A stretch of DNA of 64,000 nt from a virus. The DNA is taken from positions 64,001 to 128,000 of IMG/VR virus record IMGVR_UViG_3300008255_000101. One strand, written 5' to 3'. The notes below the pieces were generated by a model, which saw only the letters and a program-made list of their open reading frames with translations, did no database searches and was not told the DNA's origin. This document shows positions 26,436-64,000 of the stretch, in pieces. A program made the translations under genes and the position numbers. Position 1 is the stretch's first letter, and each line of letters starts with the position of its first letter.

Positions 26436-27755
26436 CTAGCTTATTTTATCTTTGATTACTTCGTACGCCGTGTTTATCAAGTTCACAGGTACACTTCCGA
26501 ATTCTTTTTTGTACTCCATCAGTAACAGGATCAGGATATCAGGAGAATTCGAAAATTCTTCTAATATCAGTTCCTGGGTCCTGGGGTCTTGCGTTGCAAA
26601 ATCACCGGTAACATAATCTGCCACTTGGTGCTCTTCCATACCGTTGGCCTTAAGGAGTTTAAGACCGTCATTGTACACTTGGCGGTGCATCTCGGCATCT
26701 TCAAGAAACTGTTTAAGCTTGGTTTTGCGATCCACATGGAACCTTTCCAAAACATCCATAGCTTCTTCGGGTACTTGAATATCCTTGATGTCCAGCAAAT
26801 TCTCTTTGACCTCGTCAGAGTACGCTTGGTCTACACCCATCTCAGTTAAGTGGGTAGCCACGGCATACACGTGCTTACAAAACGTCAGATTCTTTCCGCG
26901 ACCACCGTTAGTCACTTCACGGGGTTCGATAATTTGTGGCCTAAACATGGGCATGTACATGTAGTTGTTTTTCACAGCGTAGTACTGGGGACCCCAAAAC
27001 AAAAAGGAGTTACAGTCGCAAGCCAACTGGCAAGGATGGTCCAGTAAATTGGTGGTAGGGCCTGAGGCCTTGAGGAACTGTATCTTAACTACATGGCTCT
27101 CGTCGTCACCGGACACCTCAAATTCGTACAGTCCGTGCTTCTCCTGCTCAGGGTCGTTTCGTTTTCTGGGTTCCAGGGATCTTCCGCGAGTCTTGAACTC
27201 ATCAGTTTTTTCGTGCTTACTTGAACCCAAAATCTGATGGATATTCTTAGAAGCAGTTTTGATGCCGGCTGTTTTTAAGGACGCCTCCAAATTTGACACG
27301 TTGACGTCCTCGCCGTACAAACCGCTACCCCATGGATTACCTGTGGCCTCGTCCTGCCTCTCACGTGCAGCCCACCACCACTTAAGGGAAGTCTCCGGGG
27401 TAGTCTGCCTATCAAACTTATTGAACTCGATAGGGAAGCTCATCGCGTCCCCGTCAGACCTGTAGGAGTCGTTCTCGTTAGCAGGAGGTACATCCTGGGT
27501 CTTGTTCATACTGAGAGCGTCGTTCACGCCGTCCAGCAGATTAGGTCCTACATCGCCGTCCCCACTAGGGATATCCTTTACAGGTACCTTGCCCTTGTTC
27601 TTTTCTTCCACGTGGATATTACCCGGCGCGTTCTGGTCGGTATCCTTTCCGGGGAGATTCTTACGCATCATGTAGTCCATCCAGGGGATGTCCAAGCTCT
27701 CTTGGTTATTCCCTAGGTATTGGGCTATGATTTCTCTGGTAAAGTCTTTCTTCAT
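26436..27755 (-). CDS. SWIM zinc-finger protein with long N-terminal extension
   Basis: CDCNSF...CKHVYAV SWIM signature. KTA motifs precede the domain. Confidence 0.75.
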   Translation of the reverse strand: MKKDFTREIIAQYLGNNQESLDIPWMDYMMRKNLPGKDTDQNAPGNIHVEEKNKGKVPVKDIPSGDGDVGPNLLDGVNDALSMNKTQDVPPANENDSYRSDGDAMSFPIEFNKFDRQTTPETSLKWWWAARERQDEATGNPWGSGLYGEDVNVSNLEASLKTAGIKTASKNIHQILGSSKHEKTDEFKTRGRSLEPRKRNDPEQEKHGLYEFEVSGDDESHVVKIQFLKASGPTTNLLDHPCQLACDCNSFLFWGPQYYAVKNNYMYMPMFRPQIIEPREVTNGGRGKNLTFCKHVYAVATHLTEMGVDQAYSDEVKENLLDIKDIQVPEEAMDVLERFHVDRKTKLKQFLEDAEMHRQVYNDGLKLLKANGMEEHQVADYVTGDFATQDPRTQELILEEFSNSPDILILLLMEYKKEFGSVPVNLINTAYEVIKDKIS

Positions 27756-27848: not shown

Positions 27849-29117
27849 CTATGCCAAGGCACTAATTTGTTCTTTGGCAGCTTTACGCACGGACCAATGG
27901 GACTTAACATGTACCCGGATGGCTTCCAGGAGAGTGGGGTCCTTGAATGTCTTGACGTAGGCCACTTTGGACTTGTAGTCGATATCAGACCACTTCTTAC
28001 CTCCCACTACCAAGTCATTGACGTCGGAGACAGCCACTGCAGCAGGAGTGGGATCCTTGGGTGCCTGTTGTTTGGCCTTGAGACGGGCGGTTGCTTCATT
28101 CTTCTTCAATTGGAAGTCGTCAATCCTCTTGCGAGGAGTTTGCTCCTTCTCGTTTATGCCGGAAGAATGGGTCTTCTGCAAGATTGGAGCGTCTTGCGCC
28201 TGCCTGGTGGTACTGTCCAGGTTAGTGAGACTCTGGTCTTTCGAAGGGGGAGCGATAGCGGATGACTCCATGGTCTTTGACGAGGGCCCTACGGCAGGCT
28301 TACCCATACCCTCACCTTCGTCCACCACCGTGGTCACGGCTTTTGCTTCAAGGGTGGAACCCTGGGTACCTAGGCCGGCATTTTTGGAAATCAATTTATC
28401 GAAACCTTCCTCACTCTTGGGAGAAGAAGCGTCCAACTCAATGGTCATCTTGGCGGGAACCATCCTACGCATAGGGATAGCTTCGCCGTCCACGGGGGGA
28501 GGATTCTCCCCTCTGTTCTCGATGAGGGCCTGTTGCTTGGCGGATACAGCCCGGGCACCCATCTTAATGGCACCCTCATTATTGGAGCTCATGGCCACTG
28601 CTTCGCGGTTACCCTTCAAAGGTGCCACGATTTCCATATCTTCACCCATGATGACACCAAGCTTCTGGCGTTCCGTGGATACAGAGGTGGAGTGGTTCTG
28701 GCGGGATCCGGCATCGTCGAAGGCGGTCTTGCGTACGGTGTTGCCCTCAACCGTCTCCACGGGCATTCCCCGTTTGGCGGAGGACCCCTCGACCATGACG
28801 AGATGGCCGTTGTTATTACTGGAGGCAACCGAAGTTGGGGCCACGTTTTCAAACATTTCCTGTGCGGCAGGAGCCTGCGTAGGAGAGCTGGTCTCGTACA
28901 TAGGTACTTCTTCCGTTTCCCCCACAACTCGTAACCACCCTTCTCGGATAGCTGCCTTAAGGGATACAGAGGCATCACGAATGCCATTGTACTCTACATT
29001 GAACCCGTCGTAGAAAAGAACCTCTCCCACTTTTGTGGAAAGGCCCATTGACAAAGCGGGGTTATTGATGAGGGACAGAGTGAACGCCTCGGTCACCAGG
29101 TATTTCTGCATGGACAT
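27849..29117 (-). CDS. Hypothetical, largely low-complexity protein
   Basis: AGGAG RBS. Globular ends with a disordered-looking centre. Confidence 0.6.
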   Translation of the reverse strand: MSMQKYLVTEAFTLSLINNPALSMGLSTKVGEVLFYDGFNVEYNGIRDASVSLKAAIREGWLRVVGETEEVPMYETSSPTQAPAAQEMFENVAPTSVASSNNNGHLVMVEGSSAKRGMPVETVEGNTVRKTAFDDAGSRQNHSTSVSTERQKLGVIMGEDMEIVAPLKGNREAVAMSSNNEGAIKMGARAVSAKQQALIENRGENPPPVDGEAIPMRRMVPAKMTIELDASSPKSEEGFDKLISKNAGLGTQGSTLEAKAVTTVVDEGEGMGKPAVGPSSKTMESSAIAPPSKDQSLTNLDSTTRQAQDAPILQKTHSSGINEKEQTPRKRIDDFQLKKNEATARLKAKQQAPKDPTPAAVAVSDVNDLVVGGKKWSDIDYKSKVAYVKTFKDPTLLEAIRVHVKSHWSVRKAAKEQISALA

Positions 29118-29233: not shown

Positions 29234-29794
29234 TTACAATTTAGCGTATGGCGGGGCCACAGCTTCTTTTTCTTCGGCCAGTATGGTTTCCAAATCATCC
29301 TGATGGCTTTCCTCATCCACCAAGATGTCTTGGAGGATGTCTGCCAAACCGTACTCGCCCAGGGTAAGTGCCTGAGCGATACGTTCTTTGTAACGGGCCA
29401 CGGCTGTCTTCTCGTCCACAAGGTCAAGTTCCAGCATCTGTTTAGCACCTGGTGCCAACTTCACATCACCCACGCCTACAGCTGGTACGCCGCCCATGTA
29501 GTTTATGCGGTCGGCTAGGGAGGAGGCGTGGCCTATTTCTTCCATCCCGTGAGTCTTGAGTTCATCCCTGAAGCTGTCGTACTTCCTGCCCTGCGTACGG
29601 GCATAGTGCTGGAAGTATTGGAGGGCTGCCGTGTACTCGAGAATGAGATCCTCATTCAGCAATTCGATCAACTGGCCCTTACTGACTAATGGGGTGGGGA
29701 TAGCAGCCTGGGGGATGGAGGCCGACTTAATCTTTTCTGTTTTCTGATTTTCGCCGAAAATACTAGCGAACACAGAACTGGCGGTTTTTTGCAT
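29234..29794 (-). CDS. Ferritin-like (bacterioferritin-type) diiron protein with N-terminal extension
   Basis: LNEDLILEYTAALQY, EEIGHA..LADRI..MGGVP, DEKTAVARY and ILVDEESH are ferroxidase-centre patterns. GGAGG RBS before MQKTAS at 29794. Confidence 0.85.
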   Translation of the reverse strand: MQKTASSVFASIFGENQKTEKIKSASIPQAAIPTPLVSKGQLIELLNEDLILEYTAALQYFQHYARTQGRKYDSFRDELKTHGMEEIGHASSLADRINYMGGVPAVGVGDVKLAPGAKQMLELDLVDEKTAVARYKERIAQALTLGEYGLADILQDILVDEESHQDDLETILAEEKEAVAPPYAKL

Positions 29795-29804
29795 GGGGCC
29801 TCCG

Positions 29805-32800
29805 TTAGAATAGGCTCTGTTGGTTTGGGTCACCCTTAGGTGCTTTCACAGCGGGGCCCGGGCGGTAGTTTTCTTTGAATGGGTTTCCAAATGGACGAGG
29901 GGGAGCAGGGATATGTACATCCTTAATGGTGTAGGCACCCTTGTTGTACAGATCAGCAGTCACTACTCCTATCTGGGGTACGTGGGCCCTGGCCAGGATC
30001 CTCCCTATGGCACCCCTAATGGCAGTGGCATCCTTCCTTCTTGAGCTATCTATGCTCTCGCTTCCCGGATACCCATACACGGTCAGTTCACTGCGGGCGG
30101 GGACAGACGCTTTCTTGTTTAGAAAAGCTTCTACCACCCGGTTAACCAGCGGTGATGACGCTGTCTTTACCACTGGGTTACTTTCTTTCATATGACTTCC
30201 AAGATCCTTGATCATGGAATCGTATTCTTCAACTAACTCGGGGTCCCTGTCGAAGTCTGTTTTGTCACCAAGGGCCTTTGCGAACTTATCGAGACTTGCT
30301 AAAAAAGACTTTTTATTGACGCCATCGTTACGGCCTACAAGGGCCTTGGCGCTGCGTAGCAAATCCTTGGCCTCTGACCCTACACCCATACCCGAAAGAA
30401 CCCCGTCACCCATGTACTCGGACTTCCCGTACTGCAGGTACATGGCCACTATGTCAGCTACCTCGTACAAGTCGTCAGGGACCTCCAGCAATGCTGTGTG
30501 TACCTCGTTTCCTAGATCCCTATGCTCATCGTTGGAATCATCGGGAACCTTTTCCTCGGCGGGCTCAGACTGAGAGGGCTCTATCTTAGGATCCTCAGGG
30601 GCCTTGAGTCGGGTCCATATGTTAGCGCTTTCCTGCACTATGCTATCGGTGTTCAATATTAGTTTGGCGCCCTGAACGGATTGCATAGCCTTGGCCTTGC
30701 TACGGATCTCGTTAAGTATGCCCTTGATCTGGTCGAGCTCCGAATTAATCCCGTCACCCAACTTGCCCAGCAGGGACTCTACTTCTTCCACAGACTTTAT
30801 AGATCCGCGGTTATCGAAAAGGTACTTCATGAGTCCCTTAACCTGATCACCTATGTCACCAACTAATTCCTTATTGTCCAGAACTTCCCGAGCTTTTACC
30901 AGGGCCTTACTAAGGGCACCGCGAGCGAAGTCTAAGGCCTCCTCAGGGTCCTCTTTTTTGGCTACAAAGGCTTCAACCCTTTCTAGGTAATCCACTATAG
31001 CTTCCGCTTTCTCCACATCCCTCGTGCTGGGGACTTCAGGGGAGGCGCTTCCGGGTTCTTCCACCAAAACCTCAGCTATGGCTTCTGCTTGGGTTTCGTC
31101 CTCGGGCAGGACCTCGCCTTTCTCCTCAATCCTATCGGCCAATTCCTGTAGCATTTTACTGGCATTTTCTGGAGTCACTGGGTCAGAAACTTCCGGGGTA
31201 GCTGGTTTTTCCCCAGTACCCGCCGGCTTATCGGTGACAGTCCCACCTTGTTCTTTTTCATCAGCCTTAGCCCTGGCTGCTTGCTCCTTGGACCTCTTCA
31301 AAAAATCCTTATAGAAAGCTTCACCCCAAGCCTTAAGCTTATCTGCGGCGGGAGTTACCTCGCTGACCACATCAGCAGGAGTCGTCACACCGGGGCGAGC
31401 ATCGTACAAAGCCTCGTCAAGGGCATTATAAAATGCCGAGAAGGGGCTGTGTTTGGATTTGATGATAGTCTCCAACACACGCGGACGATTTAGAACATCC
31501 TCGCTGAAATCTAATCTGTTACCAAGCTTGGACATGACCTGGTCTAGCGTACGGGAAAGCCACGCTTTGTCCACCTTACCGTTCTGCCTATACCAAGCCT
31601 TCATGGTACCGTTGTGGTAGGATCTGAAACCACTAGTGAAAGAACCCTTCTGACGAATCTCGTTAACCAGGTTCTCCCGATCGGGCGCTACTGGGGAGTT
31701 TGGTCCCTTCTCACCCATTTCTTCGGCACTGTAGCCCCCGTCACCCTGCTCTTCGTTAGCGGGAGCCTGCTCTTCAGGTTTGCCCTCTTCCGGTGCTTCG
31801 GTATCCTCTGGTTTGGAGTCCTCAGGTTCTTCCTTAGCCTTGGCAGGTTCGGTACTGTCGGGGACTCCAGCAGTCTCCTTCTTAATGGAGTCGTGCAGAC
31901 TTTTCAGTGCTTTGTACAGGTTGTCCTTACCGTCCAGTATCAATTCGAAGTAGGTATCCGTGACAGCTTTGGACCACTCTGGAGAATCCTTGTATTCCTG
32001 AAGCGCCCGGAGGTACGAATCGTACGTACCTAAAAACTCTTTCTTGAGATCGGGTAGGGAACCTACAAAATCCCCTTCGGCGGCGGTCTTAACTAAATCT
32101 TCGAACTGGCGAAAGCGGGACTCAAAAGCCTTGCGGTCAAAGGACCCGTCTGCTTTGAATCCAAATTTTTCTAAGGAACCCTTTAACCGGCCACTCCAGT
32201 CACTCCCCACCACTCTAGTGGTGGCGTCCTCAACAACCTGGTCAAACTTCGCACGGTCAGGGCTTCCCTCAACGGGCTTCTTCTTTTCAATGACCTTATT
32301 AATTGCCTGGGATATTTGTTGGATACCGTCGGTACCTATCCACTGAATCTTCTTTTTCTTCTCTTCCGTACTTACGGGTTTGCCTTCGGGCTCCTTGGCA
32401 CTCTCGTTGCCAAACACCTTGACCAGTTCCTCCAGAGATGTTACCAGCCCGTCCTTATCCATCAAAGAATCGTAGACCAAACGGTACAGACCGTCCAGGT
32501 ACGAGGGGTCTTTTTCATTTTTGAGGTCCTGGACAGCTTCCTTTAGGAAAACAGGAGACTCCTCCAGAAATTTAAGAACCTTGGGGCCGATCGCATTGGC
32601 CCTAAATTCGGCGGCGAACTTGGTTAGGCCCATGAACTGATCGTGGGTAGATCGGTACCTCTTACCATCGTAATGAGGCCACAAACCATGATTTTGGAAC
32701 ACGTTCGTGATTCTAGTAAAATTCTGGATCAGGGACTGGGTGATCTCTTTGTACTGGCGGGTCTGCTCAGGGGTCATGCCACCACGTTCCCCGTTTGCCA

Positions 32801-32972
32801 ACCTTTGGGCGTTATCCCAGGCTTCCTCTACCCTTTCCATGCGGTCCCGAGGATTAGCTATGAAGTCCTGGACCACCTTAATCTCTTGAGGAGACACAGT
32901 GTCCATCTTGTTTTTGTTACCCCAAAACAAACCTGCGGTGACTTCCTTGTAGCTTTTTTCCACATCATTCAT
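29805..32972 (-). CDS. Large charged alpha-helical protein, putative internal head protein
   Basis: About 1055 aa, E/K/D-rich, with KTA/KKA motifs. Start MNDVEK overlaps the end of the upstream gene. Confidence 0.55.
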   Translation of the reverse strand: MNDVEKSYKEVTAGLFWGNKNKMDTVSPQEIKVVQDFIANPRDRMERVEEAWDNAQRLANGERGGMTPEQTRQYKEITQSLIQNFTRITNVFQNHGLWPHYDGKRYRSTHDQFMGLTKFAAEFRANAIGPKVLKFLEESPVFLKEAVQDLKNEKDPSYLDGLYRLVYDSLMDKDGLVTSLEELVKVFGNESAKEPEGKPVSTEEKKKKIQWIGTDGIQQISQAINKVIEKKKPVEGSPDRAKFDQVVEDATTRVVGSDWSGRLKGSLEKFGFKADGSFDRKAFESRFRQFEDLVKTAAEGDFVGSLPDLKKEFLGTYDSYLRALQEYKDSPEWSKAVTDTYFELILDGKDNLYKALKSLHDSIKKETAGVPDSTEPAKAKEEPEDSKPEDTEAPEEGKPEEQAPANEEQGDGGYSAEEMGEKGPNSPVAPDRENLVNEIRQKGSFTSGFRSYHNGTMKAWYRQNGKVDKAWLSRTLDQVMSKLGNRLDFSEDVLNRPRVLETIIKSKHSPFSAFYNALDEALYDARPGVTTPADVVSEVTPAADKLKAWGEAFYKDFLKRSKEQAARAKADEKEQGGTVTDKPAGTGEKPATPEVSDPVTPENASKMLQELADRIEEKGEVLPEDETQAEAIAEVLVEEPGSASPEVPSTRDVEKAEAIVDYLERVEAFVAKKEDPEEALDFARGALSKALVKAREVLDNKELVGDIGDQVKGLMKYLFDNRGSIKSVEEVESLLGKLGDGINSELDQIKGILNEIRSKAKAMQSVQGAKLILNTDSIVQESANIWTRLKAPEDPKIEPSQSEPAEEKVPDDSNDEHRDLGNEVHTALLEVPDDLYEVADIVAMYLQYGKSEYMGDGVLSGMGVGSEAKDLLRSAKALVGRNDGVNKKSFLASLDKFAKALGDKTDFDRDPELVEEYDSMIKDLGSHMKESNPVVKTASSPLVNRVVEAFLNKKASVPARSELTVYGYPGSESIDSSRRKDATAIRGAIGRILARAHVPQIGVVTADLYNKGAYTIKDVHIPAPPRPFGNPFKENYRPGPAVKAPKGDPNQQSLF

Positions 32973-33621
32973 AGTAGGATCCCATCCTGTCCTTAAAATA
33001 CTGGCCCTTACTGTCAGGGATGAACCCATCCATGGAGGCTACCTTAAAAGCAAATGTGTCTGCAAAATCATCCCAAGGGTTACGGCGAGCGTAAAAACGC
33101 ACGAACTTCGAAGAGGGGTCGTAGAACCACTCCCCTACCACGTTTTCCTCAGAGTCCTTGTCATTTATAACGATGCGAACTTTACCGTCTTCAGGTTTCT
33201 CACACCACCCCGATAATTGCAACCACTCGGGTTTCTTGCAGAGCTCGCCCTTAACCATATCCCACCCATGTCCCAGCTCGTGAAACAGGGTGTGGTCAAA
33301 ACGATCCAAAATCTTACCCGAGGTGTCCTTGAAAACTACGGGATCGTCCACCAAGCGCGTATTAAGGACCAGCGTCTCCCCCACGTAGTAACCGTGGTTG
33401 GGGAAGTACTCCTTGGACTCGCCCAAATCCTCGAACCCTATATCCTTTATTCCACAATCCTTGACAAGTCCGTCAGGAAGCTGGTGAAGGGCCCGGGCCA
33501 AACGGGACACCAGGTGCTGGTGGGATCCAGGGCGTACGGCCATACCGTACCTTTTGAGGATACCGCCTGGTGTAGAATTTAAACCAATGTCAGCCATAGC
33601 AAAATACTGTTGTTTTTTCAA
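32965..33621 (-). CDS. Zincin-type metallopeptidase
   Basis: FHELGH (HExxH) and downstream YARRNPWDDFADTF. Confidence 0.75.
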   Translation of the reverse strand: MKKQQYFAMADIGLNSTPGGILKRYGMAVRPGSHQHLVSRLARALHQLPDGLVKDCGIKDIGFEDLGESKEYFPNHGYYVGETLVLNTRLVDDPVVFKDTSGKILDRFDHTLFHELGHGWDMVKGELCKKPEWLQLSGWCEKPEDGKVRIVINDKDSEENVVGEWFYDPSSKFVRFYARRNPWDDFADTFAFKVASMDGFIPDSKGQYFKDRMGSYYE

Positions 33622-36717: not shown

Positions 36718-37707
36718 CTAACGGTAAAACTCTACGCATACGGAAGACACTACGTCATCTGCACTGACGTTACCGTCCAAAAAATCCTTAACCGTGTCCA
36801 AGAACCCCGGAACCTTTCTTATTACCTTATTGACCCTGCCCGCGTACTTAGGGGCCCCCTTATAACGAGCAAATTCGGGGCCCGTCAAGACGGAACCTAC
36901 CTCTTTGCAACTCTGTAGGTACTCTCCCAGCTGGCTGGGTAACCCCTGGCGGGCGGGCGTCACTTCACAGTAACTCACGAACTCGGACCACGACCCAAAA
37001 TGATGTTCTATTTGAGCTGTGGTGGCGGACAAAGGGTAATCCACCGTACCATGGAGTTTGGATAACGCTGACCTTGCAGGGGAACCACCTTTCCGGGTAT
37101 GTGCCCGCATCTCCTCCCTCCAGGTCTCTTCCTCCCCCGTGTGATCCCCACGCCGGGTATCTATACCCATTTCCTCGCACCACTTTGCCAAGGTGACCGA
37201 GGACACTCCAAACTCGTTGGCAACACTTTTAAGTAGGACGCCTCTAGACACTCTATCCCTTAGAAGGTCCTCAGCGGGGCACACTTTTCGGTTTTTACCC
37301 GCATGGGATTTACCCTCGGCGTGGAGCTTTTTCATATTTTCCCGGGATTTAGCACGAGCGGATTCCGTCTGGGAGTAGTGCTCCACTCCGTGGTTCTTTA
37401 AGGTTGTTTCCCGGGCCTTTGCTTTATTGTAAACAGGCCCTGTTAACTCTCGGACTTTGCTCCGATTACTCAAGACCTGGGGGTCCCTCATGGGGTGCCC
37501 TCCCGCGTACCTCTCAAAAGTTTTAGCAGTCTTGATTTTTGCTGCTACGTAATCCCGGGAGCACACAGCCCGGGCCACAACATCCTCATCGAGTAGAGGG
37601 GTGCCTGGGTACTCCCGACGTAAGTCCGCTACAGATTTCCCATGCTTATTTATTATGTGGGAAGTCAGTACGCGATGTACCTCTTTACAGTATGGACACG
37701 TACTCAC
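36718..37707 (-). CDS. Basic DNA-binding protein with C2H2-like finger, HTH and homing-endonuclease-associated-type motifs
   Basis: CPYC...HIINKH, VANEFGVSSVTLAKW (HTH), HFGSWSEF. ATGA-coupled to the methyltransferase gene. Confidence 0.6.
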   Translation of the reverse strand: MSTCPYCKEVHRVLTSHIINKHGKSVADLRREYPGTPLLDEDVVARAVCSRDYVAAKIKTAKTFERYAGGHPMRDPQVLSNRSKVRELTGPVYNKAKARETTLKNHGVEHYSQTESARAKSRENMKKLHAEGKSHAGKNRKVCPAEDLLRDRVSRGVLLKSVANEFGVSSVTLAKWCEEMGIDTRRGDHTGEEETWREEMRAHTRKGGSPARSALSKLHGTVDYPLSATTAQIEHHFGSWSEFVSYCEVTPARQGLPSQLGEYLQSCKEVGSVLTGPEFARYKGAPKYAGRVNKVIRKVPGFLDTVKDFLDGNVSADDVVSSVCVEFYR

Positions 37708-39566
37708 TTACAAACCTCCATCAACAAGACCTTGTCGGTGTACCCGCTGTCCCACCTACCCGAACTGCATATTTCAAGAACGTCTATCATTTTGTACCCG
37801 GCAGAAAGGAACACTCTTATGGAGTCGGTTACCAGGGAGTACTTACCCACGTCACCTATTACCCAGGCTACTTTCCCTCCGGGCTTAACCGACCTACGTA
37901 TGTTGCAAACTACGGGGTACACAAAGCCATCTACCCACGCTCTGTAGCTATGGAATTGATTCACACTTTGCAGGGGATCCTCTGAGTACAGCTCATGCCT
38001 GTAATACGGGGGGCACGCAATGCAGATATCCGCCGTGTTCTCCTCAGGGTAATTGCTAGGGTCACTGGAGCACCCCTGTACCACTGTGATGTCCTTTACC
38101 GATGTGTGCTCCTTTAAAAACGACGCCAGCTCAAGTGCCCCACTTACTGTAAGGGGTTCGGAGTCTATGCCGTGATAGCTACGTTCCCCTGTTACGGAAG
38201 CCCCAACCATACGCCCGCCCCATCCAGAAAAAGGGTCCAGGACCAAGTCGTCAGGCCCCCTACCGTATTTCTCCAGGAGGTACTTAGCCCACACAGGGTT
38301 AAAATTGGACGCTACCTTGGACCCGTAGTAGGATAGCGCTCCTCTGATGTTGGAGTTCTCGTACCGAGACCCTTCCTTTATCTGCTTACCCAGGCAGTCG
38401 GTAAGTAAGCCTTTACTACGGAACACCTCCACTGGGGACGGTCTACCCCCGGACGACACACCGTACCTATTCTTATAAAAACTAGAGGGTAGGGACGTGT
38501 ACCGTGAGTGTGCCAGAATCTTATGACCCCTGGTGGAAACCTCTGCATCCCTTATGAACCCCAAGTTTTTGACCATATTTTCTTTAGACATTACGGGGTA
38601 AGGGAAGCCCCTCGCTTTCGTGCGAGACACAAGGATGTGTGCCTTGGGGTCCGAGGGGTCCCATAGGGGGTGATCAATGTCCCTGAACAACTCTTCACTT
38701 TTTTCAGAAAGACCCCTAGCCCAGTACTTGATAGGTGTCTCCCATAGCCTGTCGGTAATTTTATACTTGAGGTTGTTCACGAAATAATGGGATAGACGCG
38801 CCAGAGAGTCCTTGCAAGTTATGCGGAGTAAGAAGGAGTGGTGGTCCTGTACGGGAGCTACGGGGACTCCCGTTTTTGACTCAATCAGACGAGCTACTTC
38901 CTCCAGTCTACTAAGTGTGTAGTGGTCCTGGAACCCTATGGATATCTTGATACCGCTTTTCTTGTCATACCTGGACCCGTCGTCCATAGCCCATATGGCT
39001 AGGGTGTCCTCCCCGAACTCGTCGTACACAGACGGATTCATGATGTCCTTAAACCCCCCAGGATAGAAAAGATCCCTGAGACGTTTAGCCCACGCGGTGC
39101 AGGCACTTTTGGCATGCACCTGCATGTCCTCTCTAGCCGTGGCGGTTGAGCTTACTCCTAGTCTTAAACTAGACAGGGAGTCCCCGAGCATTGCCGCCTT
39201 CATCCACATGTAAGGAGCTTGAGAGAAAGCGTGGGATTCCAGGAAGTACGGGGAGGGTCCCCCACTTATGCACCCATCCCCAAATAAACTGTTGTAGGCC
39301 AACCTCTCCGCCTCGCCCCGTATGTTTAGACCGCGTGCCGCTACGAATAGTTTTTCGGACAGGGTATCAGGGGTAGCCATGGTAAGGGCCTCTAGTTTCT
39401 TATTAGAAACCGAACCAGTTTTCCTGTTTACTGCTTTCCGTGTGGACCCGCCCGCTAACCTCTTGTAGGAGCTGTGTGTAAGGTACGGAAAGTTCTTCTG
39501 AACTTCCTCAAGAGTGGAACCTTTGTCGATCATTGCTTGTAGGGCTAGCATATTACTCATTTCCAT
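37704..39566 (-). CDS. LAGLIDADG-like domain fused to an amino (N4C/N6A) DNA methyltransferase
   Basis: NSLFGDGCI and LAIWAMDDGS (LAGLIDADG pair). VLDPFSGWGGR (SAM-binding motif I), CPPYY..ELYS (motif IV), VKPGG. Confidence 0.75.
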   Translation of the reverse strand: MEMSNMLALQAMIDKGSTLEEVQKNFPYLTHSSYKRLAGGSTRKAVNRKTGSVSNKKLEALTMATPDTLSEKLFVAARGLNIRGEAERLAYNSLFGDGCISGGPSPYFLESHAFSQAPYMWMKAAMLGDSLSSLRLGVSSTATAREDMQVHAKSACTAWAKRLRDLFYPGGFKDIMNPSVYDEFGEDTLAIWAMDDGSRYDKKSGIKISIGFQDHYTLSRLEEVARLIESKTGVPVAPVQDHHSFLLRITCKDSLARLSHYFVNNLKYKITDRLWETPIKYWARGLSEKSEELFRDIDHPLWDPSDPKAHILVSRTKARGFPYPVMSKENMVKNLGFIRDAEVSTRGHKILAHSRYTSLPSSFYKNRYGVSSGGRPSPVEVFRSKGLLTDCLGKQIKEGSRYENSNIRGALSYYGSKVASNFNPVWAKYLLEKYGRGPDDLVLDPFSGWGGRMVGASVTGERSYHGIDSEPLTVSGALELASFLKEHTSVKDITVVQGCSSDPSNYPEENTADICIACPPYYRHELYSEDPLQSVNQFHSYRAWVDGFVYPVVCNIRRSVKPGGKVAWVIGDVGKYSLVTDSIRVFLSAGYKMIDVLEICSSGRWDSGYTDKVLLMEVCK

Positions 39567-41279: not shown

Positions 41280-42188
41280 TTAGCTGAAAACAGCTGACAC
41301 GTTGGGAGTAGAACCCCAGAGAGAATCAAGAATGTCGTCGGAGGATCCGGCAGAAGCCTTTTTGACCATCGAGCTGGTCAAGGAAGCAGCGGCAGGTTCC
41401 ACAGCACTGAAAATGGATTCCAAAGCGTCATCGCCATGGGAAGAAGCAGTCTTGGCAGAAGCCTCAACAATGTTTTCTTTTCCCATTTCGATTTCGGGTT
41501 CGGGCTCAGGAGCGGGTTCGTCACCATCGGGCTCAGGAGCGGGAGCAGGTTCGGTAGCGGCTTGGGCCATGGCCATCACCACGTCGGTCAACTTGGCGAG
41601 CTTGTCTTCGAGAGCGGCCATCTTGTCTTCAGCTTCTTTGGCTTCAGGAGCTTCTTCAGTCTCGGGAGCTTTAGGAGCTTCGTCACCGTCGGGCTCACCT
41701 TCACCGGCAGCTTTAGGAGCTTCAGGAGCTTCAGGTTCGTCGGCAGCGGAAGTCACGCTCAAAGCCAAAGAGGCTTGGCGAGAAAGCACACCGTCAATGG
41801 CGGAGTCGGGGAGGAACATGAGATCGGAAGAGTTAGCGATCAGAGCTTCTTGGCTTGCACCAGGCAGCATACGCTCGGAGGCGATCATGCACTTGGCTGC
41901 GTGTTCACGCATCTGGCTGGATTGCTTGATGGCTTGAGCGAAGGCCATGCGGATTTCACCGAGATTCATCTCGTTGCGCTTGGCATCTTCGGTATTGAGT
42001 TTTGCAGTTTCTTGCGTGGAGATCGGATCTTCCTTCCATGAAGAAGTGTCGCCGGTCTGGTATTCCTTTTGGAATGTTTCACCGGATCCGTTACCGCCGC
42101 GCTTGGCTTCATCGGGGCGTGCACCATTCATGGTGTACACGTCGTTGACTTCCCCCGCCTTCTTGTCTGTAAGCCTAGTTCTTTCCAT
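41280..42188 (-). CDS. Capsid scaffolding protein
   Basis: E/A/P-rich helical protein between protease and decoration genes. GAGG RBS before MERTRL. C-terminal LDSLWGSTPNVSAVF. Confidence 0.7.
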   Translation of the reverse strand: MERTRLTDKKAGEVNDVYTMNGARPDEAKRGGNGSGETFQKEYQTGDTSSWKEDPISTQETAKLNTEDAKRNEMNLGEIRMAFAQAIKQSSQMREHAAKCMIASERMLPGASQEALIANSSDLMFLPDSAIDGVLSRQASLALSVTSAADEPEAPEAPKAAGEGEPDGDEAPKAPETEEAPEAKEAEDKMAALEDKLAKLTDVVMAMAQAATEPAPAPEPDGDEPAPEPEPEIEMGKENIVEASAKTASSHGDDALESIFSAVEPAAASLTSSMVKKASAGSSDDILDSLWGSTPNVSAVFS

Positions 42189-42324
42189 TTGAGTATCCTC
42201 TTGGGTTCTGATTTTGTTCATCCCCCTCGCGGCTGGAATGCCCTGCGGGGACCAAGTCACTTCCTCTGCGTTTACATCAAATTCTGCTGTAGACTCATAA
42301 GGAATTTTCGAAGTTTTCGATATG

Positions 42325-49905: not shown

Positions 49906-50176
49906 CTTGGCCTTCCTTGCTCTTCTTGGGTCCCTTAGGGATGTACCCATTTCCGTTTTCTTCCCGATACTCTTTTTGGTACTGGTTGCGGTACTCTCTC
50001 GTATCTGTCACATTGTTACTCTTGCGCCGTGGAGGCTTATCATTTGGCATTTTCAAAAACGGCTTTTCCTTCGTGGAAGAGCCGTCCTCCAATAACCGGG
50101 ATTCTTTGTTCTCCACCATTTCCTGAGCCAGCTTTCGTAGCTCGGACGCTATGATCAACTTCTTAGTCAATTCCAT
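49898..50176 (-). CDS. Small basic protein with IASELRKLAQE leader
   Basis: 92 aa directly downstream of the portal. Confidence 0.55.
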   Translation of the reverse strand: MELTKKLIIASELRKLAQEMVENKESRLLEDGSSTKEKPFLKMPNDKPPRRKSNNVTDTREYRNQYQKEYREENGNGYIPKGPKKSKEGQDG

Positions 50177-52076
50177 TCACCTTCACTACGGGAGCTTGCC
50201 TAGATTTAAGAAACTTGATAACCTTAGCCACACCCTCGGGGTCACTAGCCAATAGAGATTCCAATTCGATTTTTTGGGCCTTATCGCTTGCGAACCTTAA
50301 GCCCCCAAGTCCGCCTCCGCCACCGCCTGCAGCTTCTCCGCCTGCTTCCTCAGTGGGCTCCTTATATGTGACGCCAAGAGCTGTAGCCAACTTGGACATG
50401 ATATCCGTACGGTTAGGCATCTCATTGGCTGCCGCCTGGTACACGCCACGGACCAGGTCGTTAAACGCAGAGTCGTTGACGGACAGGAGATCGCTCTTCA
50501 GACGGGCTGTGGCCGTGGTGGAGTCTATCCCTATCAAGTCGTAGATGTCTTCGATGGGGACGCTTCCCTTATTGTACAGCTGCATGAGCTGATCGAATAC
50601 AGAGTCGTTATCCCTGATGGAGAGACGTGCAAAGGATATCTTAGGGTAGATGACCTTTTCATTACCGTACTTATCCGTTTCCACAAAACCTTTTCTGCGG
50701 GCCACGGGTTCGAACAGATATTTCTCAATGTACTCCTGCAGCATGTCGCGGAACAGGAGGTACTGAATATTCAGCAATTCCAAAGTTATCTTGGACCCCG
50801 AGTAGGACGCTTCACCAGTCATCATTTCTTTGGTGACACCCAGACCAGCGTACAAGTCCGAGTCATACCGTTCAAACTCAGCAGAAAGGTCTAGGAGCCT
50901 CTGATTGGACCCGTACTCTTCCCAGCTGATTTGGTAGTTAGCTACGATCGAGTAGTCAGGGTCCATAAGGGCCATGTCAATCTGCGACCTTAAATCTTCC
51001 ACATCCATCTCACTAAGATCTTCAGCCGTGACCACCCGTATGGGTGTCATGTGCCTACTGGCGATGGATGTCTGGGCCTGGCGTAGCTTATCCTTGACCA
51101 GAAGGGTGTTAACACACCTTTCCAGGATGGATACACCATTGGTTTCGTACTGGGACTTCTTACGTGCAAAATGAAAAACAAAGGATCCGGCGTTAGGGTC
51201 CTGCTCTAGGGGTATGGTTCCTCCCCTAGACACTTGCTCCCTGATTTCCTCAGGGACATCGGGGCGAGAGGATTTGCTCAGGTTCTTAAAGGCATCTCCA
51301 CCAGATTCTTCAAATCTTGTGATGGCTGCCTTAGTCTCGGGGTCAGGTAGGTACTCAATGAGGGGGTTGTCCGCAAAAGGGATCTTGGTGACACGCACTT
51401 GGTCAGGTGGTAGGATGATGAGTTTTCTCCACCCTATGTAGTTGGGGTCTGTGTCCGTTATGCGGTATTCCTTCAGAAGCATATCAGACTGGGCCTTACC
51501 CCTCGCTTCAAGGGCTGCCCTAGCATCCTTGCTTAATCCGTCATAGGGATTGTGGTCCTCTGCGAACGTGTGGCAATTGCCTATCAGCCAAAATTCATGA
51601 CTTATTTCCGAAAGGCTTCTGAGCATCTTCAAGCGTTCGGACATCTTATCAAAAAAGCGGTAGCTGTACTCAGCCAAATGTTCGTTCTTCGCCTTGGGCT
51701 TCTGCAGCTTTATTTTGGAAAGGGGTATGGTGGAATGCAGATCGATAGCCGCACCGATGATCTCGGTGGAGTTGTAAAAGTGGCGATACCACGCCCTGCG
51801 TTCCCGCAGATTCTGTGGTTTTTCCAGAAAGTCGGTGGACAGCTGGGGGCTGTACCAATTACCGCCGGAACCCATGGACACGTCTCCGGATCCGTAGAAG
51901 CTGGCGGTTTTACTGGACCCGAACCCGCCGGCTAGAGCTGCCACTTTTTTGCGGGCCATTCTCTCTTTGTCCGAGAGGGGGGTGCTCTTAGGGATTACAT
52001 CGGAAACCACGGTCACGCCAGGTGTGCGAGTGTTCGCAACCTTGACCATAGGTGTATTTGATTTTTTTCCAGCCAT
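50163..52076 (-). CDS. Portal protein
   Basis: WYRHFY...IIGAAIDLHSTIP, EFWLIGN, VFHFARKKSQYETNGVSILERC, LYAGLGVT...GEASYS, RDMLQEYIEKYLFEPVA. Size and position fit a portal. Confidence 0.85.
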   Translation of the reverse strand: MAGKKSNTPMVKVANTRTPGVTVVSDVIPKSTPLSDKERMARKKVAALAGGFGSSKTASFYGSGDVSMGSGGNWYSPQLSTDFLEKPQNLRERRAWYRHFYNSTEIIGAAIDLHSTIPLSKIKLQKPKAKNEHLAEYSYRFFDKMSERLKMLRSLSEISHEFWLIGNCHTFAEDHNPYDGLSKDARAALEARGKAQSDMLLKEYRITDTDPNYIGWRKLIILPPDQVRVTKIPFADNPLIEYLPDPETKAAITRFEESGGDAFKNLSKSSRPDVPEEIREQVSRGGTIPLEQDPNAGSFVFHFARKKSQYETNGVSILERCVNTLLVKDKLRQAQTSIASRHMTPIRVVTAEDLSEMDVEDLRSQIDMALMDPDYSIVANYQISWEEYGSNQRLLDLSAEFERYDSDLYAGLGVTKEMMTGEASYSGSKITLELLNIQYLLFRDMLQEYIEKYLFEPVARRKGFVETDKYGNEKVIYPKISFARLSIRDNDSVFDQLMQLYNKGSVPIEDIYDLIGIDSTTATARLKSDLLSVNDSAFNDLVRGVYQAAANEMPNRTDIMSKLATALGVTYKEPTEEAGGEAAGGGGGGLGGLRFASDKAQKIELESLLASDPEGVAKVIKFLKSRQAPVVKVNGID

Positions 52077-62761: not shown

Positions 62762-63997
62762 TCAGAAATTGATGTTTCCCATCTGGCCCATCACGATGTC
62801 AGTGCTCTTACGTGGAGGTGTAATAACCGCAGACATGTCAATGTCCAAGGAGTTGGCAGTCAACCCCATGGAAACCGATGGGTCAATGTCGGGAGTAACC
62901 TGCGAAGCTTTCTTCACATGGGTCACTTTAAACGAGCGGCCTTGACGGCTGCAAGCCCCACAAACCTTACGGACGCAACTCCTGCACTTGGAACCTTCAA
63001 TGAGGGAGGCGGTCTTTGCCAAGGGGTAACCTTGAGACTGGCAGTTGTCGAGGGAATCCGCATGAATCTCATCCATAGCGGCCATAGCCTCTCTAACGAT
63101 CCCTATGGCTTCGCCAATTGGTACGTAGTTGGCAACTTTACTTTCCACGGAAGAGGCGCTTAGGCCAGCCTGGAACGACTTAGTGGCAGCAGTCTTGATG
63201 GCGCCGCGATCCACTTCTTGGCGAGTGGGTCCCACGGAGCTATACAGGTAACCCTGCTGGGTGCTTGCTATCTTCACATCAGTGGATGCCTTCTTTTCCT
63301 TATAGGAAGTCATGGCGGCCTTGATGATGCTGACAGGGGAAAGGGACGCATTCTTCACAGCGTCCAAAAGCTGTACAGCCACGTCACTGCTCAACTTGGC
63401 GGCACCGTGCAAAGAGGAAACCACTTCAGAAGCATGCTTCATAGTGATGTCTTCCACACCTGTAAGGATAGGTAGGCCTGTGCGGGTACGAATCTTTTCC
63501 ATGAAACCGTCGTCGACGGGCAAAGAATTGTGAATGAACTGTGGCTTCATGAAGGATCCGCCCACAGCATTGGTGGCAGCGTCTACATCAGGATAAGCCG
63601 ACACGTCCACAACCAATGGCCCTATGATACCTTGCTTCTTCACCATGCTGCCGATCTCAGGAGCGAACTCCTGGATGGTCGCAGTGTCCATGCAAGCACG
63701 GATACCATTCTTGAGGTCATCGTCCATGGCGCCCTTCAGCATGAGGTCCTGCACACGAGCAAGGACAGGCCTTACACGAGCGATACGAATCTGCGAGGCT
63801 ATCCTGGCGTCGCTGGCCATAACTTCGTTATGGATGGAAGCCATAGCTTGCTGTACGGTTTCAGGATTAGCGACCACAGATTCAACTGCGTCTGCGTGCC
63901 CTGGGTCCAACAAGGTCTCAGCCCTCTTTAGGCGGCCCTGCAAGAAAGCCTGGCGAAGATCCTCTTTGGTGCGAATGCTCGCTTCCTTAGTGATCAC
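62762..63997 (-). CDS. Head-associated protein rich in KxA(S) motifs with Cys cluster; may extend beyond the window
   Basis: KEAS, RIAS, KKAS, KIAS, KTAA, KTAS motifs and CRSC..VCGAC. Confidence 0.55.
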   Translation of the reverse strand: MITKEASIRTKEDLRQAFLQGRLKRAETLLDPGHADAVESVVANPETVQQAMASIHNEVMASDARIASQIRIARVRPVLARVQDLMLKGAMDDDLKNGIRACMDTATIQEFAPEIGSMVKKQGIIGPLVVDVSAYPDVDAATNAVGGSFMKPQFIHNSLPVDDGFMEKIRTRTGLPILTGVEDITMKHASEVVSSLHGAAKLSSDVAVQLLDAVKNASLSPVSIIKAAMTSYKEKKASTDVKIASTQQGYLYSSVGPTRQEVDRGAIKTAATKSFQAGLSASSVESKVANYVPIGEAIGIVREAMAAMDEIHADSLDNCQSQGYPLAKTASLIEGSKCRSCVRKVCGACSRQGRSFKVTHVKKASQVTPDIDPSVSMGLTANSLDIDMSAVITPPRKSTDIVMGQMGNINF

Positions 63998-64000
63998 GCC

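Follow-up and report, generated by a model that had tools for sequence, protein, structure and literature searches.

What is a ferritin-like enzyme doing among the head genes of a huge phage, and why is it extended at its N-terminus by a peptide that its cellular relatives lack? The question is raised by a 64,000-nt stretch of DNA (hereafter the window), positions 64,001-128,000 of the IMG/VR virus record IMGVR_UViG_3300008255_000101, which carries on its minus strand a gene for a ferritin-like protein of 186 amino acids (aa). The record is a 150-kb contig with a completeness rated at 32%, and it encodes a large terminase, a portal, a head-maturation protease and a major capsid protein (MCP). 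The element is a huge phage, with a capsid protein that resembles that of phage G. The only sequencing run found to contain the full sequence is an aquifer metagenome, probably the source sample, and no RNA run containing it is listed. An initial annotation had proposed that the ferritin-like protein may be packaged in the phage head in the manner of encapsulin cargo. The answer that we prefer, with a probability of roughly 0.55, is that the gene encodes a pro-ferritin that would be loaded into the prohead, cut by the phage's own protease and retained inside the head, where it would act as a scavenger of Fe(II) and oxidants.

The open reading frame (ORF) had been correctly delimited and runs from an ATG at 29794-29792 to a TAA stop at 29236-29234. 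It has a strong ribosome-binding site, whose Shine-Dalgarno sequence directly follows the TAA of the gene upstream and lies 4 nt from the ATG, which favours this start over an in-frame GTG at 29833. The ferroxidase-type four-helix bundle that had been proposed is indeed intact. Pfam Ferritin (PF00210) matches residues 43-174 with 95.7 bits (cut-off 24.5, E 3.1e-27), and the six di-iron ligands of bacterioferritin (Bfr) type, E53, E86, H89, E128, E161 and H164, are invariant, together with Y60, in the phage clade described below. An AlphaFold2 (AF2) model built on 89 sequences has a mean predicted local distance difference test score (pLDDT) of 92.9 and four long helices (residues 39-66, 73-99, 117-144 and 148-172). 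The best match among solved structures is 9qq4, the mini-bacterioferritin (mBfr) of Ca. Methanoperedens, with a root mean square deviation (rmsd) of 1.0 Å over 133 columns, TMt 0.93-0.94 and 32% identity; other matches include the Bacillus anthracis di-iron protein 2qqy, with true bacterioferritins and Dps-like proteins ranked lower.

The resemblance to this enzyme (Mper-mBfr, PDB 9qq4, Wissink et al. 2026, PMC13168243), whose cage is a 12-mer, extends to a core that consists of the bundle only, without E or BC helix, and a di-iron centre located within the subunit. Gly34 of its A-B loop corresponds to G69 of the phage protein, which is invariant in the 89 sequences. In contrast, the haem-binding Met52 (multiple sequence alignment numbering, PMC13168243) is replaced by I87, a position occupied by I or L in phage-clade members and by M in some cellular relatives. 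The dimer-interface His29 aligns to Y64, although the adjacent H63 is conserved and a register error of one residue is possible. Whereas the authors list terminal extensions as absent from mBfr, the phage protein has a 37-residue N-terminal extension and an 11-residue C-terminal tail, and C-terminal extensions in its relatives reach 82 residues; its genomic setting, a phage structural module, is likewise different. As the mBfr signature is present only in part, the protein is better described as an mBfr-like ferroxidase than as a strict mBfr. Assignments to other families were considered and rejected. The bacterioferritin model (TIGR00754) gives 58.4 bits against a cut-off of 125.55, the structural model has no fifth helix and Ile occupies the haem-Met position. 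The best NCBIfam Dps/DpsA equivalog reaches 40.9 bits against a cut-off of 170 and the ligands form an intrasubunit Bfr-type site, while for encapsulin cargo EncB_fam gives 18.7 bits against a cut-off of 90 and ferrit_encaps does not match the protein. On its sequence and predicted fold, then, the protein is an mBfr-like ferroxidase with a complete di-iron site, and is not a bacterioferritin, a Dps or a member of an encapsulin cargo family.

A homologue search with the ferritin recovered 113 proteins, which fall into a cellular and a phage group. The cellular homologues are 138-143 aa long and have neither an N- nor a C-terminal extension. Two of their genomic settings were examined; one gene lies in a cluster with FUR, thioredoxin-reductase-like and desulfoferrodoxin genes and the other near ribosomal protein genes. 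The phage group comprises about 22 proteins, 170-254 aa in length, which make up a single clade beside these leaderless cellular forms (support of 90 in the Shimodaira-Hasegawa-like approximate likelihood ratio test, SH-aLRT) and show three architectures: an N-terminal leader only, as in the window, a leader combined with a long C-terminal extension, or a C-terminal extension only. The leader is therefore specific to phage, because the cellular homologues lack it. This comparison had been named beforehand in the initial annotation as one on which the packaging idea might fail, and the idea survives it. Long N-terminal extensions among 150 representatives were left uncounted, since many look like over-extended gene calls on GC-rich cellular contigs. 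A tblastn search of a collection of annotated phages with the ferritin was empty at 1e-5; at E <= 5 it yielded only weak bacterioferritin-like matches.

The leader itself had been described as an extension of about 35 aa with two putative cleavage motifs. It measures 37 aa and both motifs are present (KTAS at residues 3-6 and KSAS at 23-26), but only the second is conserved in relatives. Leader-bearing proteins follow the consensus aromatic-x-x-[ILM]-[FYW]-G, a short spacer and [IV]-K-[TS]-A-[SA]-[IVL]-P. All 12 relatives with a leader have K-[TSLA]-[AS]-x at the second site, which is a strict [KR]-x-A-[SA] in 10 of them (the variants are KTSS and KASE). The nine phage proteins without an N-terminal leader all carry [KR]-hydrophobic-A-[SAT] 10-16 residues before the C-terminus, and any such motif, at any position, is found in 7 of 67 cellular relatives. 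Each protein thus retains one such motif at the end where it has an extension, a regularity that would be difficult to account for if the motif had no function.

The same motif is enriched in the proteins of the phage head. Within the minus-strand head block (window 26.4-66.2 kb) K-x-A-S occurs 29 times against 5.2 +/- 2.2 expected from 1000 shuffles, and the reversed control S-A-x-K five times. Outside the block the count is 15 against 11.3 expected, so that the excess in the whole genome (44 against 16.4) comes entirely from the head genes. At 18 of 37 sites the K/R is preceded by I, L, V, M or F, compared with a background of 25%, and the I-K-S-A-S of the ferritin leader matches this consensus, hydrophobic P4 included. 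Annotated relatives identified through the MCP are the uncultured phage LR745208 (485 kb, 69% identity), Tunturiibacter phage Tunturi_5 (48%), Bacillus phage G (42%) and, more distantly, cluster C mycobacteriophages; the protein collection contains about 1,950 MCP relatives, and the contigs that encode them reach 470 kb. Around the head genes K-x-A-S is found 18 times in LR745208 (5.1 expected), 14 times in Tunturi_5 (3.7) and 14 times in phage G (3.8). Its positions are conserved in diverged homologues: the portal has it near both its N- and its C-terminal end, the scaffold candidate near the C-terminal end, and the protease carries it as well. The arrangement in the portal is the same in phage G gp14. 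The scaffold candidate, a 326-aa protein, is probably the scaffolding protein to judge by its position and the conservation of its motifs.

From these patterns, and by analogy with other capsid proteases, we conclude that hydrophobic-[KR]-x-A-S is probably the cleavage specificity of the capsid protease of this clade. Herpesvirus assemblins recognise the general consensus (V/L/I)-x-A|S; they cleave on the C-terminal side of Ala, and P1' is Ser or Thr. The A-S bond is, by this analogy, the most likely site of cleavage in the phage motif. The R- and M-sites of pseudorabies virus, for example, are given as YLQA-T and VQA-S (PMC4498786). We also considered the leader as a mimic of scaffold C-terminal peptides, as ASIF/SLWG-like strings can be seen by eye. 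This idea was dropped: a hidden Markov model (HMM) of the leader scores the scaffold at E 4, which is noise, and a strict leader-like pattern has only one other site, which is unrelated.

The protease that would act on these sites is encoded in the same block. Its AF2 model contains a confident assemblin-fold domain (residues ~45-255), and its K-x-A-S motifs, at residues 35, 296 and 426, lie in linkers of low pLDDT. Comparison of the domain by VIA-align placed herpesvirus assemblins at Z 11.0 (rmsd 2.5, 118 residues aligned) and 10.9 and T4 gp21 at Z 9.9. Each of the top 21 rows is a capsid protease, after which Z falls to 6.8. These clear scores come from VIA-align only, as Foldseek alone gave E >= 0.057; by sequence the protein has no Pfam match, and neither phmmer nor a profile search found a match in the PDB. 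In 64 homologues (35-68% identity) site 296 stands out from an otherwise variable linker, with [KR]296 and A298 present in 64/64 and S299 in 50/64, and in total these homologues contain 150 copies of K-x-A-S compared with 7 of the reversed motif. H112 and S173 are invariant in the same set and are candidates for catalytic residues. A cluster of cysteines (C176, C183, C186 and C197), inserted in the assemblin-fold domain, is also invariant in these homologues. The third K-x-A-S site is followed by a helical C-terminal domain of 115 aa, and many of the homologues in relatives contain inteins (PF05203, PF14528, PF14890).

The ferritin subfamily is also tied to head maturation in another phage lineage. 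When the ferritin domain was searched against 1.84 billion representatives, close relatives turned up as the C-terminal part of far longer proteins. Two of these, P0359 (630 aa) and P0383 (735 aa), consist of an HK97-type prohead protease (Peptidase_S78; phrog_80) fused to a ferritin domain that is 45-48% identical to that of the window and retains all six di-iron ligands. Each gene has a portal(+Mu F) gene on one side and the gene for an HK97 MCP on the other, a place that is occupied in other phages by a protease-scaffold polyprotein. Ferritin-fold domains are likewise present in the BFVD in several proteins of uncultured phages named 'Prohead protease', as well as in Gp346 of phage G. The two fusion proteins share a short C-terminal tail (...ES[VL]KLFD[DE]), and a locus of these fusion genes is L028:6393-8600. 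Other fusions of this subfamily join the ferritin to a gamma-glutamyl cyclotransferase (GGACT) or to DUF5661 (P0370 and P0363). A literature search found no paper describing a ferritin packaged in phage heads or a protease-ferritin fusion.

These observations suggest how the pro-ferritin may have arisen and how it would act. A huge phage-G-like lineage would have acquired an mBfr-type ferroxidase from anaerobic cellular hosts and turned it into a head pro-protein, whose 25-residue propeptide, ending in I-K-S-A|S, would present the recognition motif of the assemblin-fold maturation protease. This protease is predicted to be active only inside assembled proheads. A conserved site for a protease confined to proheads would mean that the ferritin is co-assembled into the prohead, trimmed there and retained beside the DNA. 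Cleavage at A25|S26 would give a mature ferritin starting at S26 (SIPQAAIPTPLVSK...), and relatives without a leader would be trimmed at their C-terminal site instead. Inside the head the enzyme would oxidise and sequester Fe(II) and consume O2 or H2O2, and could in this way protect a genome of perhaps several hundred kb from Fenton damage in a redox-fluctuating, iron-rich aquifer; possibly it is delivered together with the DNA. An enzymatic role is supported by the strict retention of the catalytic site and by the oxidative-stress locus of one of the two cellular relatives. Cleavage and its scissile bond, incorporation, oligomeric state and physiological role are what we infer. The packaging idea of the initial annotation is thus strengthened in part, by the phage identity of the element, the phage-specific leader, the protease-linked motif and the protease fusions, while a second cleavage motif and a head-like neighbour, on which it had also drawn, give it no help.

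Several observations weigh against the proposal that the ferritin is packaged. The motif is short, and both the assignment of the protease and the choice of the A-S bond rest on position, conservation and analogy. In the AF2 model the leader (pLDDT 79-89, with a helix at residues 5-13) is docked on the ferritin bundle, which fits an intramolecular pro-segment as well as it fits a targeting peptide, and control of oligomerisation is possible. Among all proteins of the genome the leader HMM has no other match better than E 0.39; there is therefore no shared targeting sequence of the kind known from T4. The ferritin gene is absent, jointly with the zincin-like, 1074-aa and 422-aa genes around it, from LR745208, a close relative, and from Tunturi_5 and phage G, which marks it as accessory and not a core component of the head. 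Leaderless ferritin-like genes occur in unrelated viral contigs, so that an unpackaged role is viable for the family. Finally, Gp346 of phage G has no [KR]-x-A-[SA] motif.

Of the alternatives, the one that survives best is an auxiliary protein that stays in the cell, where a ferritin made late in infection would buffer iron and oxidants or feed iron to phage enzymes. The extension would then control solubility, oligomerisation or stability, and K-x-A-S would be incidental or cut in the cytoplasm. A leader modelled as docked on the bundle is what such a protein might show, its gene would be dispensable in close relatives as is seen here, and leaderless genes in viral contigs and cellular homologues in oxidative-stress operons agree with it, as do the Dps-like genes that Lactobacillus phages carry near replication genes (PMC6669764). 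What it leaves unexplained is the single terminal protease-type motif in every member of the phage clade, at one end or the other, the fixed place of the ferritin inside the structural block and the fusion of sister domains to prohead proteases between portal and MCP genes. We regard it as possible, though unlikely.

The fusions bear differently on a second alternative, in which the ferritin, perhaps as a 12-mer, is an assembly factor in the scaffolding core that is released by cleavage and then lost or degraded before or during DNA packaging and is absent from mature virions. In P0359 and P0383 the ferritin domain occupies the place that the scaffold has in protease-scaffold polyproteins, with a conserved C-terminal tail after it, and the scaffold of the window has its K-x-A-S near the C-terminal end, like the herpesvirus M-site (PMC4498786). 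A purely architectural protein would have no need of di-iron ligands, yet these are strictly kept in all phage and fusion forms. The window also contains a separate candidate for the scaffold, and a folded 12-mer would be too large to leave through the pores of the capsid, all of which makes an assembly factor doubtful. It is very unlikely that [KR]-x-A-S marks head proteins for modification or docking and that the ferritin leader joins them uncut, even though no cleavage products have been observed and the motif also occurs in folded-looking regions of some proteins. Its sites flank the protease domain in disordered linkers and lie close to the ends of portal and scaffold, a distribution familiar from the substrates in T4 and phiKZ, and the A-S pair fits assemblin specificity.

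The features of the ferritin gene and of the genes discussed here are collected below.

Features of the window (minus-strand coordinates are given from low to high).
Feature	Position	Strand	Basis
Ferritin-like pro-protein gene (P0001), 186 aa, stop included	29234..29794	-	ORF, translation, Pfam Ferritin, AF2
Shine-Dalgarno GGAGG, 4 nt 5' of ferritin ATG	29799..29803	-	direct sequence reading
Proposed propeptide, residues 1-25; aromatic-x-x-[ILM]-[FYW]-G helix at residues 5-13	29720..29794	-	conserved in 12 leader-bearing relatives
First K-T-A-S, residues 3-6, not conserved, no hydrophobic P4	29777..29788	-	alignment of relatives
Protease-type site I22-K23-S24-A25-S26 (hydrophobic-[KR]-x-A-S)	29717..29731	-	conserved in leader-bearing relatives
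Four-helix bundle with di-iron centre, residues 39-172	29279..29680	-	Pfam, ligands, AF2, structure match
422-aa protein, directly downstream of ferritin; R-D-A-S at 47	27849..29117	-	ORF; position of motif conserved in L007
1074-aa protein, directly upstream of ferritin; K-x-A-S at 955, 972	29805..33029	-	ORF
Zincin-like HExxH protein	32965..33621	-	weak Peptidase_Mx match, E 0.008
Major capsid protein (MCP), 292 aa	39731..40609	-	phrog_2522 at 1.9e-54; PDB 6wkk (phage G gp27) at 1.9e-64
Probable scaffolding protein, 326 aa; [KR]-x-A-S at 161, K-x-A-S at 270, 300 near C-terminal end	41280..42260	-	between protease and MCP; motif positions conserved
Capsid maturation protease, 544 aa	42374..44008	-	phrog_18299 at 2.8e-16
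Portal protein, K-T-A-S at residue 56, R-F-A-S at 594	50163..52076	-	phrog_16240 at 1.7e-36

Where the context of the ferritin gene is known, the block reads nucleotidase, zincin-like protein, ~1000-aa protein, ferritin, ~430-aa protein, ~435-aa protein and Zn-ribbon, followed by genes for collagen-like fibres, and this late structural order is kept in loci L002-L007, L014 and L015. The zincin-like, 1074-aa, ferritin and 422-aa genes occur together in all ferritin-bearing relatives examined. Their joint presence and joint absence suggest a single accessory module of one sub-lineage. The initial annotation had placed the ferritin in a 'late-motif' operon with a zincin and a large 'head-like' protein. 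A zincin-like HExxH protein is encoded upstream on the same strand, as had been said. The large protein is there too, but the description of the 1074-aa product as head-like is not sustained, as it has no match in Pfam, PHROG or the ESM Atlas; the 422-aa protein likewise gave no lead in these three. A late motif could not be established: a scan for sigma-70 promoters and terminators was at background, no clear terminator follows the ferritin gene and no sharp 9-mer common to the intergenic regions was found.

Further along the block, a 439-aa protein (window 26436-27755) contains a CxC...CxH pattern (LACDCNSF...FCKHVYAV) that resembles a SWIM zinc finger. Of the genes in this block, this one alone has homologues in LR745208 and Tunturi_5, and in the latter the homologue is annotated as 'tail protein'. 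The MCP gene is directly followed by a gene for a DNA methyltransferase-like protein with a LAGLIDADG endonuclease insert (37704-39566) and then by an HNH endonuclease gene (36718-37707), mobile elements that are not found at this position in loci L002 and L014. Upstream of the terminase genes, a 639-aa protein (window 62762-64000, the ORF continuing to genome position 128681) contains 10 [KR]-x-A-S motifs and may be a polyprotein of internal head proteins.

If the ferritin is processed and retained as we propose, an iron-detoxifying enzyme would lie inside a phage head and would represent a new class of packaged phage protein, providing a functional bridge between phage capsids and encapsulin nanocompartments. 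The presence of hydrophobic-[KR]-x-A-S in terminal extensions would then be a sequence rule that predicts the internal head proteome of this very large clade of huge phages, most of them uncultured, and would connect a phage protease with herpesvirus assemblins through the Ala|Ser specificity of the latter. Leader and trailer peptides might also be put to use for filling large capsids with foreign proteins. More tentatively, tailed-phage capsids of at least two lineages might be ferritin-loaded compartments, by means of a terminal cleavable peptide in phage-G-like phages and of fusion to the prohead protease in HK97-type phages. Phage head assembly would in that case offer a counterpart to the loading of ferritins into encapsulins, and might even be its evolutionary root. 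An assemblin-fold protease with herpesvirus Ala-Ser specificity would drive the process here.

Among known systems, the S78 protease-ferritin fusions share with the window the association of the same ferritin subfamily with head-maturation machinery, but the link is covalent there and the lineage different, whereas here the ferritin is a free protein with a leader. Gp346 is a Dps-type ferritin-like protein that has been reported in the particle proteomics of phage G (PMC12484599), which sets a precedent for the packaging proposed here. It belongs to the ferritin superfamily, has a long N-terminal extension and comes from a phage with a related capsid protein and protease; in contrast to the ferritin of the window it is of the Dps branch, shows no detectable similarity by tblastn and is encoded far from the head module. 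Exactly three proteins of phage G begin with MKRLxKKA (28218, 255160 and 256453; L025-L027), compared with 0 for the reversed pattern: gp38 in the head region (MKRLIKKAS), Gp346 (MKRLFKKAL) and its divergent neighbour (MKRLTKKAN). This sequence may be a shared N-terminal leader in phage G.

The herpesvirus assemblin system (pUL26, with protease, R-site, scaffold, M-site and MCP-binding tail) resembles that of the window in the fold of the protease and in the Ala-Ser pair that follows the protease domain and recurs near the C-terminal ends of scaffolds. Its layout of protease domain, site, linker and C-terminal domain is mirrored here, and the scaffold sites near the C-terminal end are placed like the M-site. 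The phage motif differs in having a basic P3 with a hydrophobic P4, where herpesviruses have a hydrophobic P3, and protease and scaffold are encoded by separate genes; cleavage in the phage is a prediction. T4 internal proteins with a capsid targeting sequence, and head proteins of phiKZ and SPN3US, likewise have an N-terminal propeptide that ends at a prohead-protease site and are dispensable for the shell. The protease of the window belongs to the fold family of T4 gp21, but the motifs cut in T4 and phiKZ are L/I-x-E or S/A/G-x-E, in contrast to hydrophobic-[KR]-x-A-S. Unlike the T4 targeting sequence, the leader is not shared with other cargo, the cargo is an enzyme of the ferritin family and its incorporation is predicted.

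Encapsulins have the HK97 fold in common with phage capsids and load ferritin-like cargo. Their cargo proteins (EncFtn/Flp, IMEF and EncB) resemble the phage protein in combining a ferroxidase of the ferritin superfamily with a short N- or C-terminal extension and an HK97-fold shell. Here, in contrast, the shell is that of a genuine phage head, which comes with a portal, a terminase and a protease; the protease site in the extension points to removal of the extension; and the enzyme is a full four-helix bundle where EncFtn has two helices. The ferritin of the window may therefore be viewed as a variant both of the protease-processed internal head proteins and of the ferritin cargo of HK97-fold shells, with functional steps that we infer throughout.

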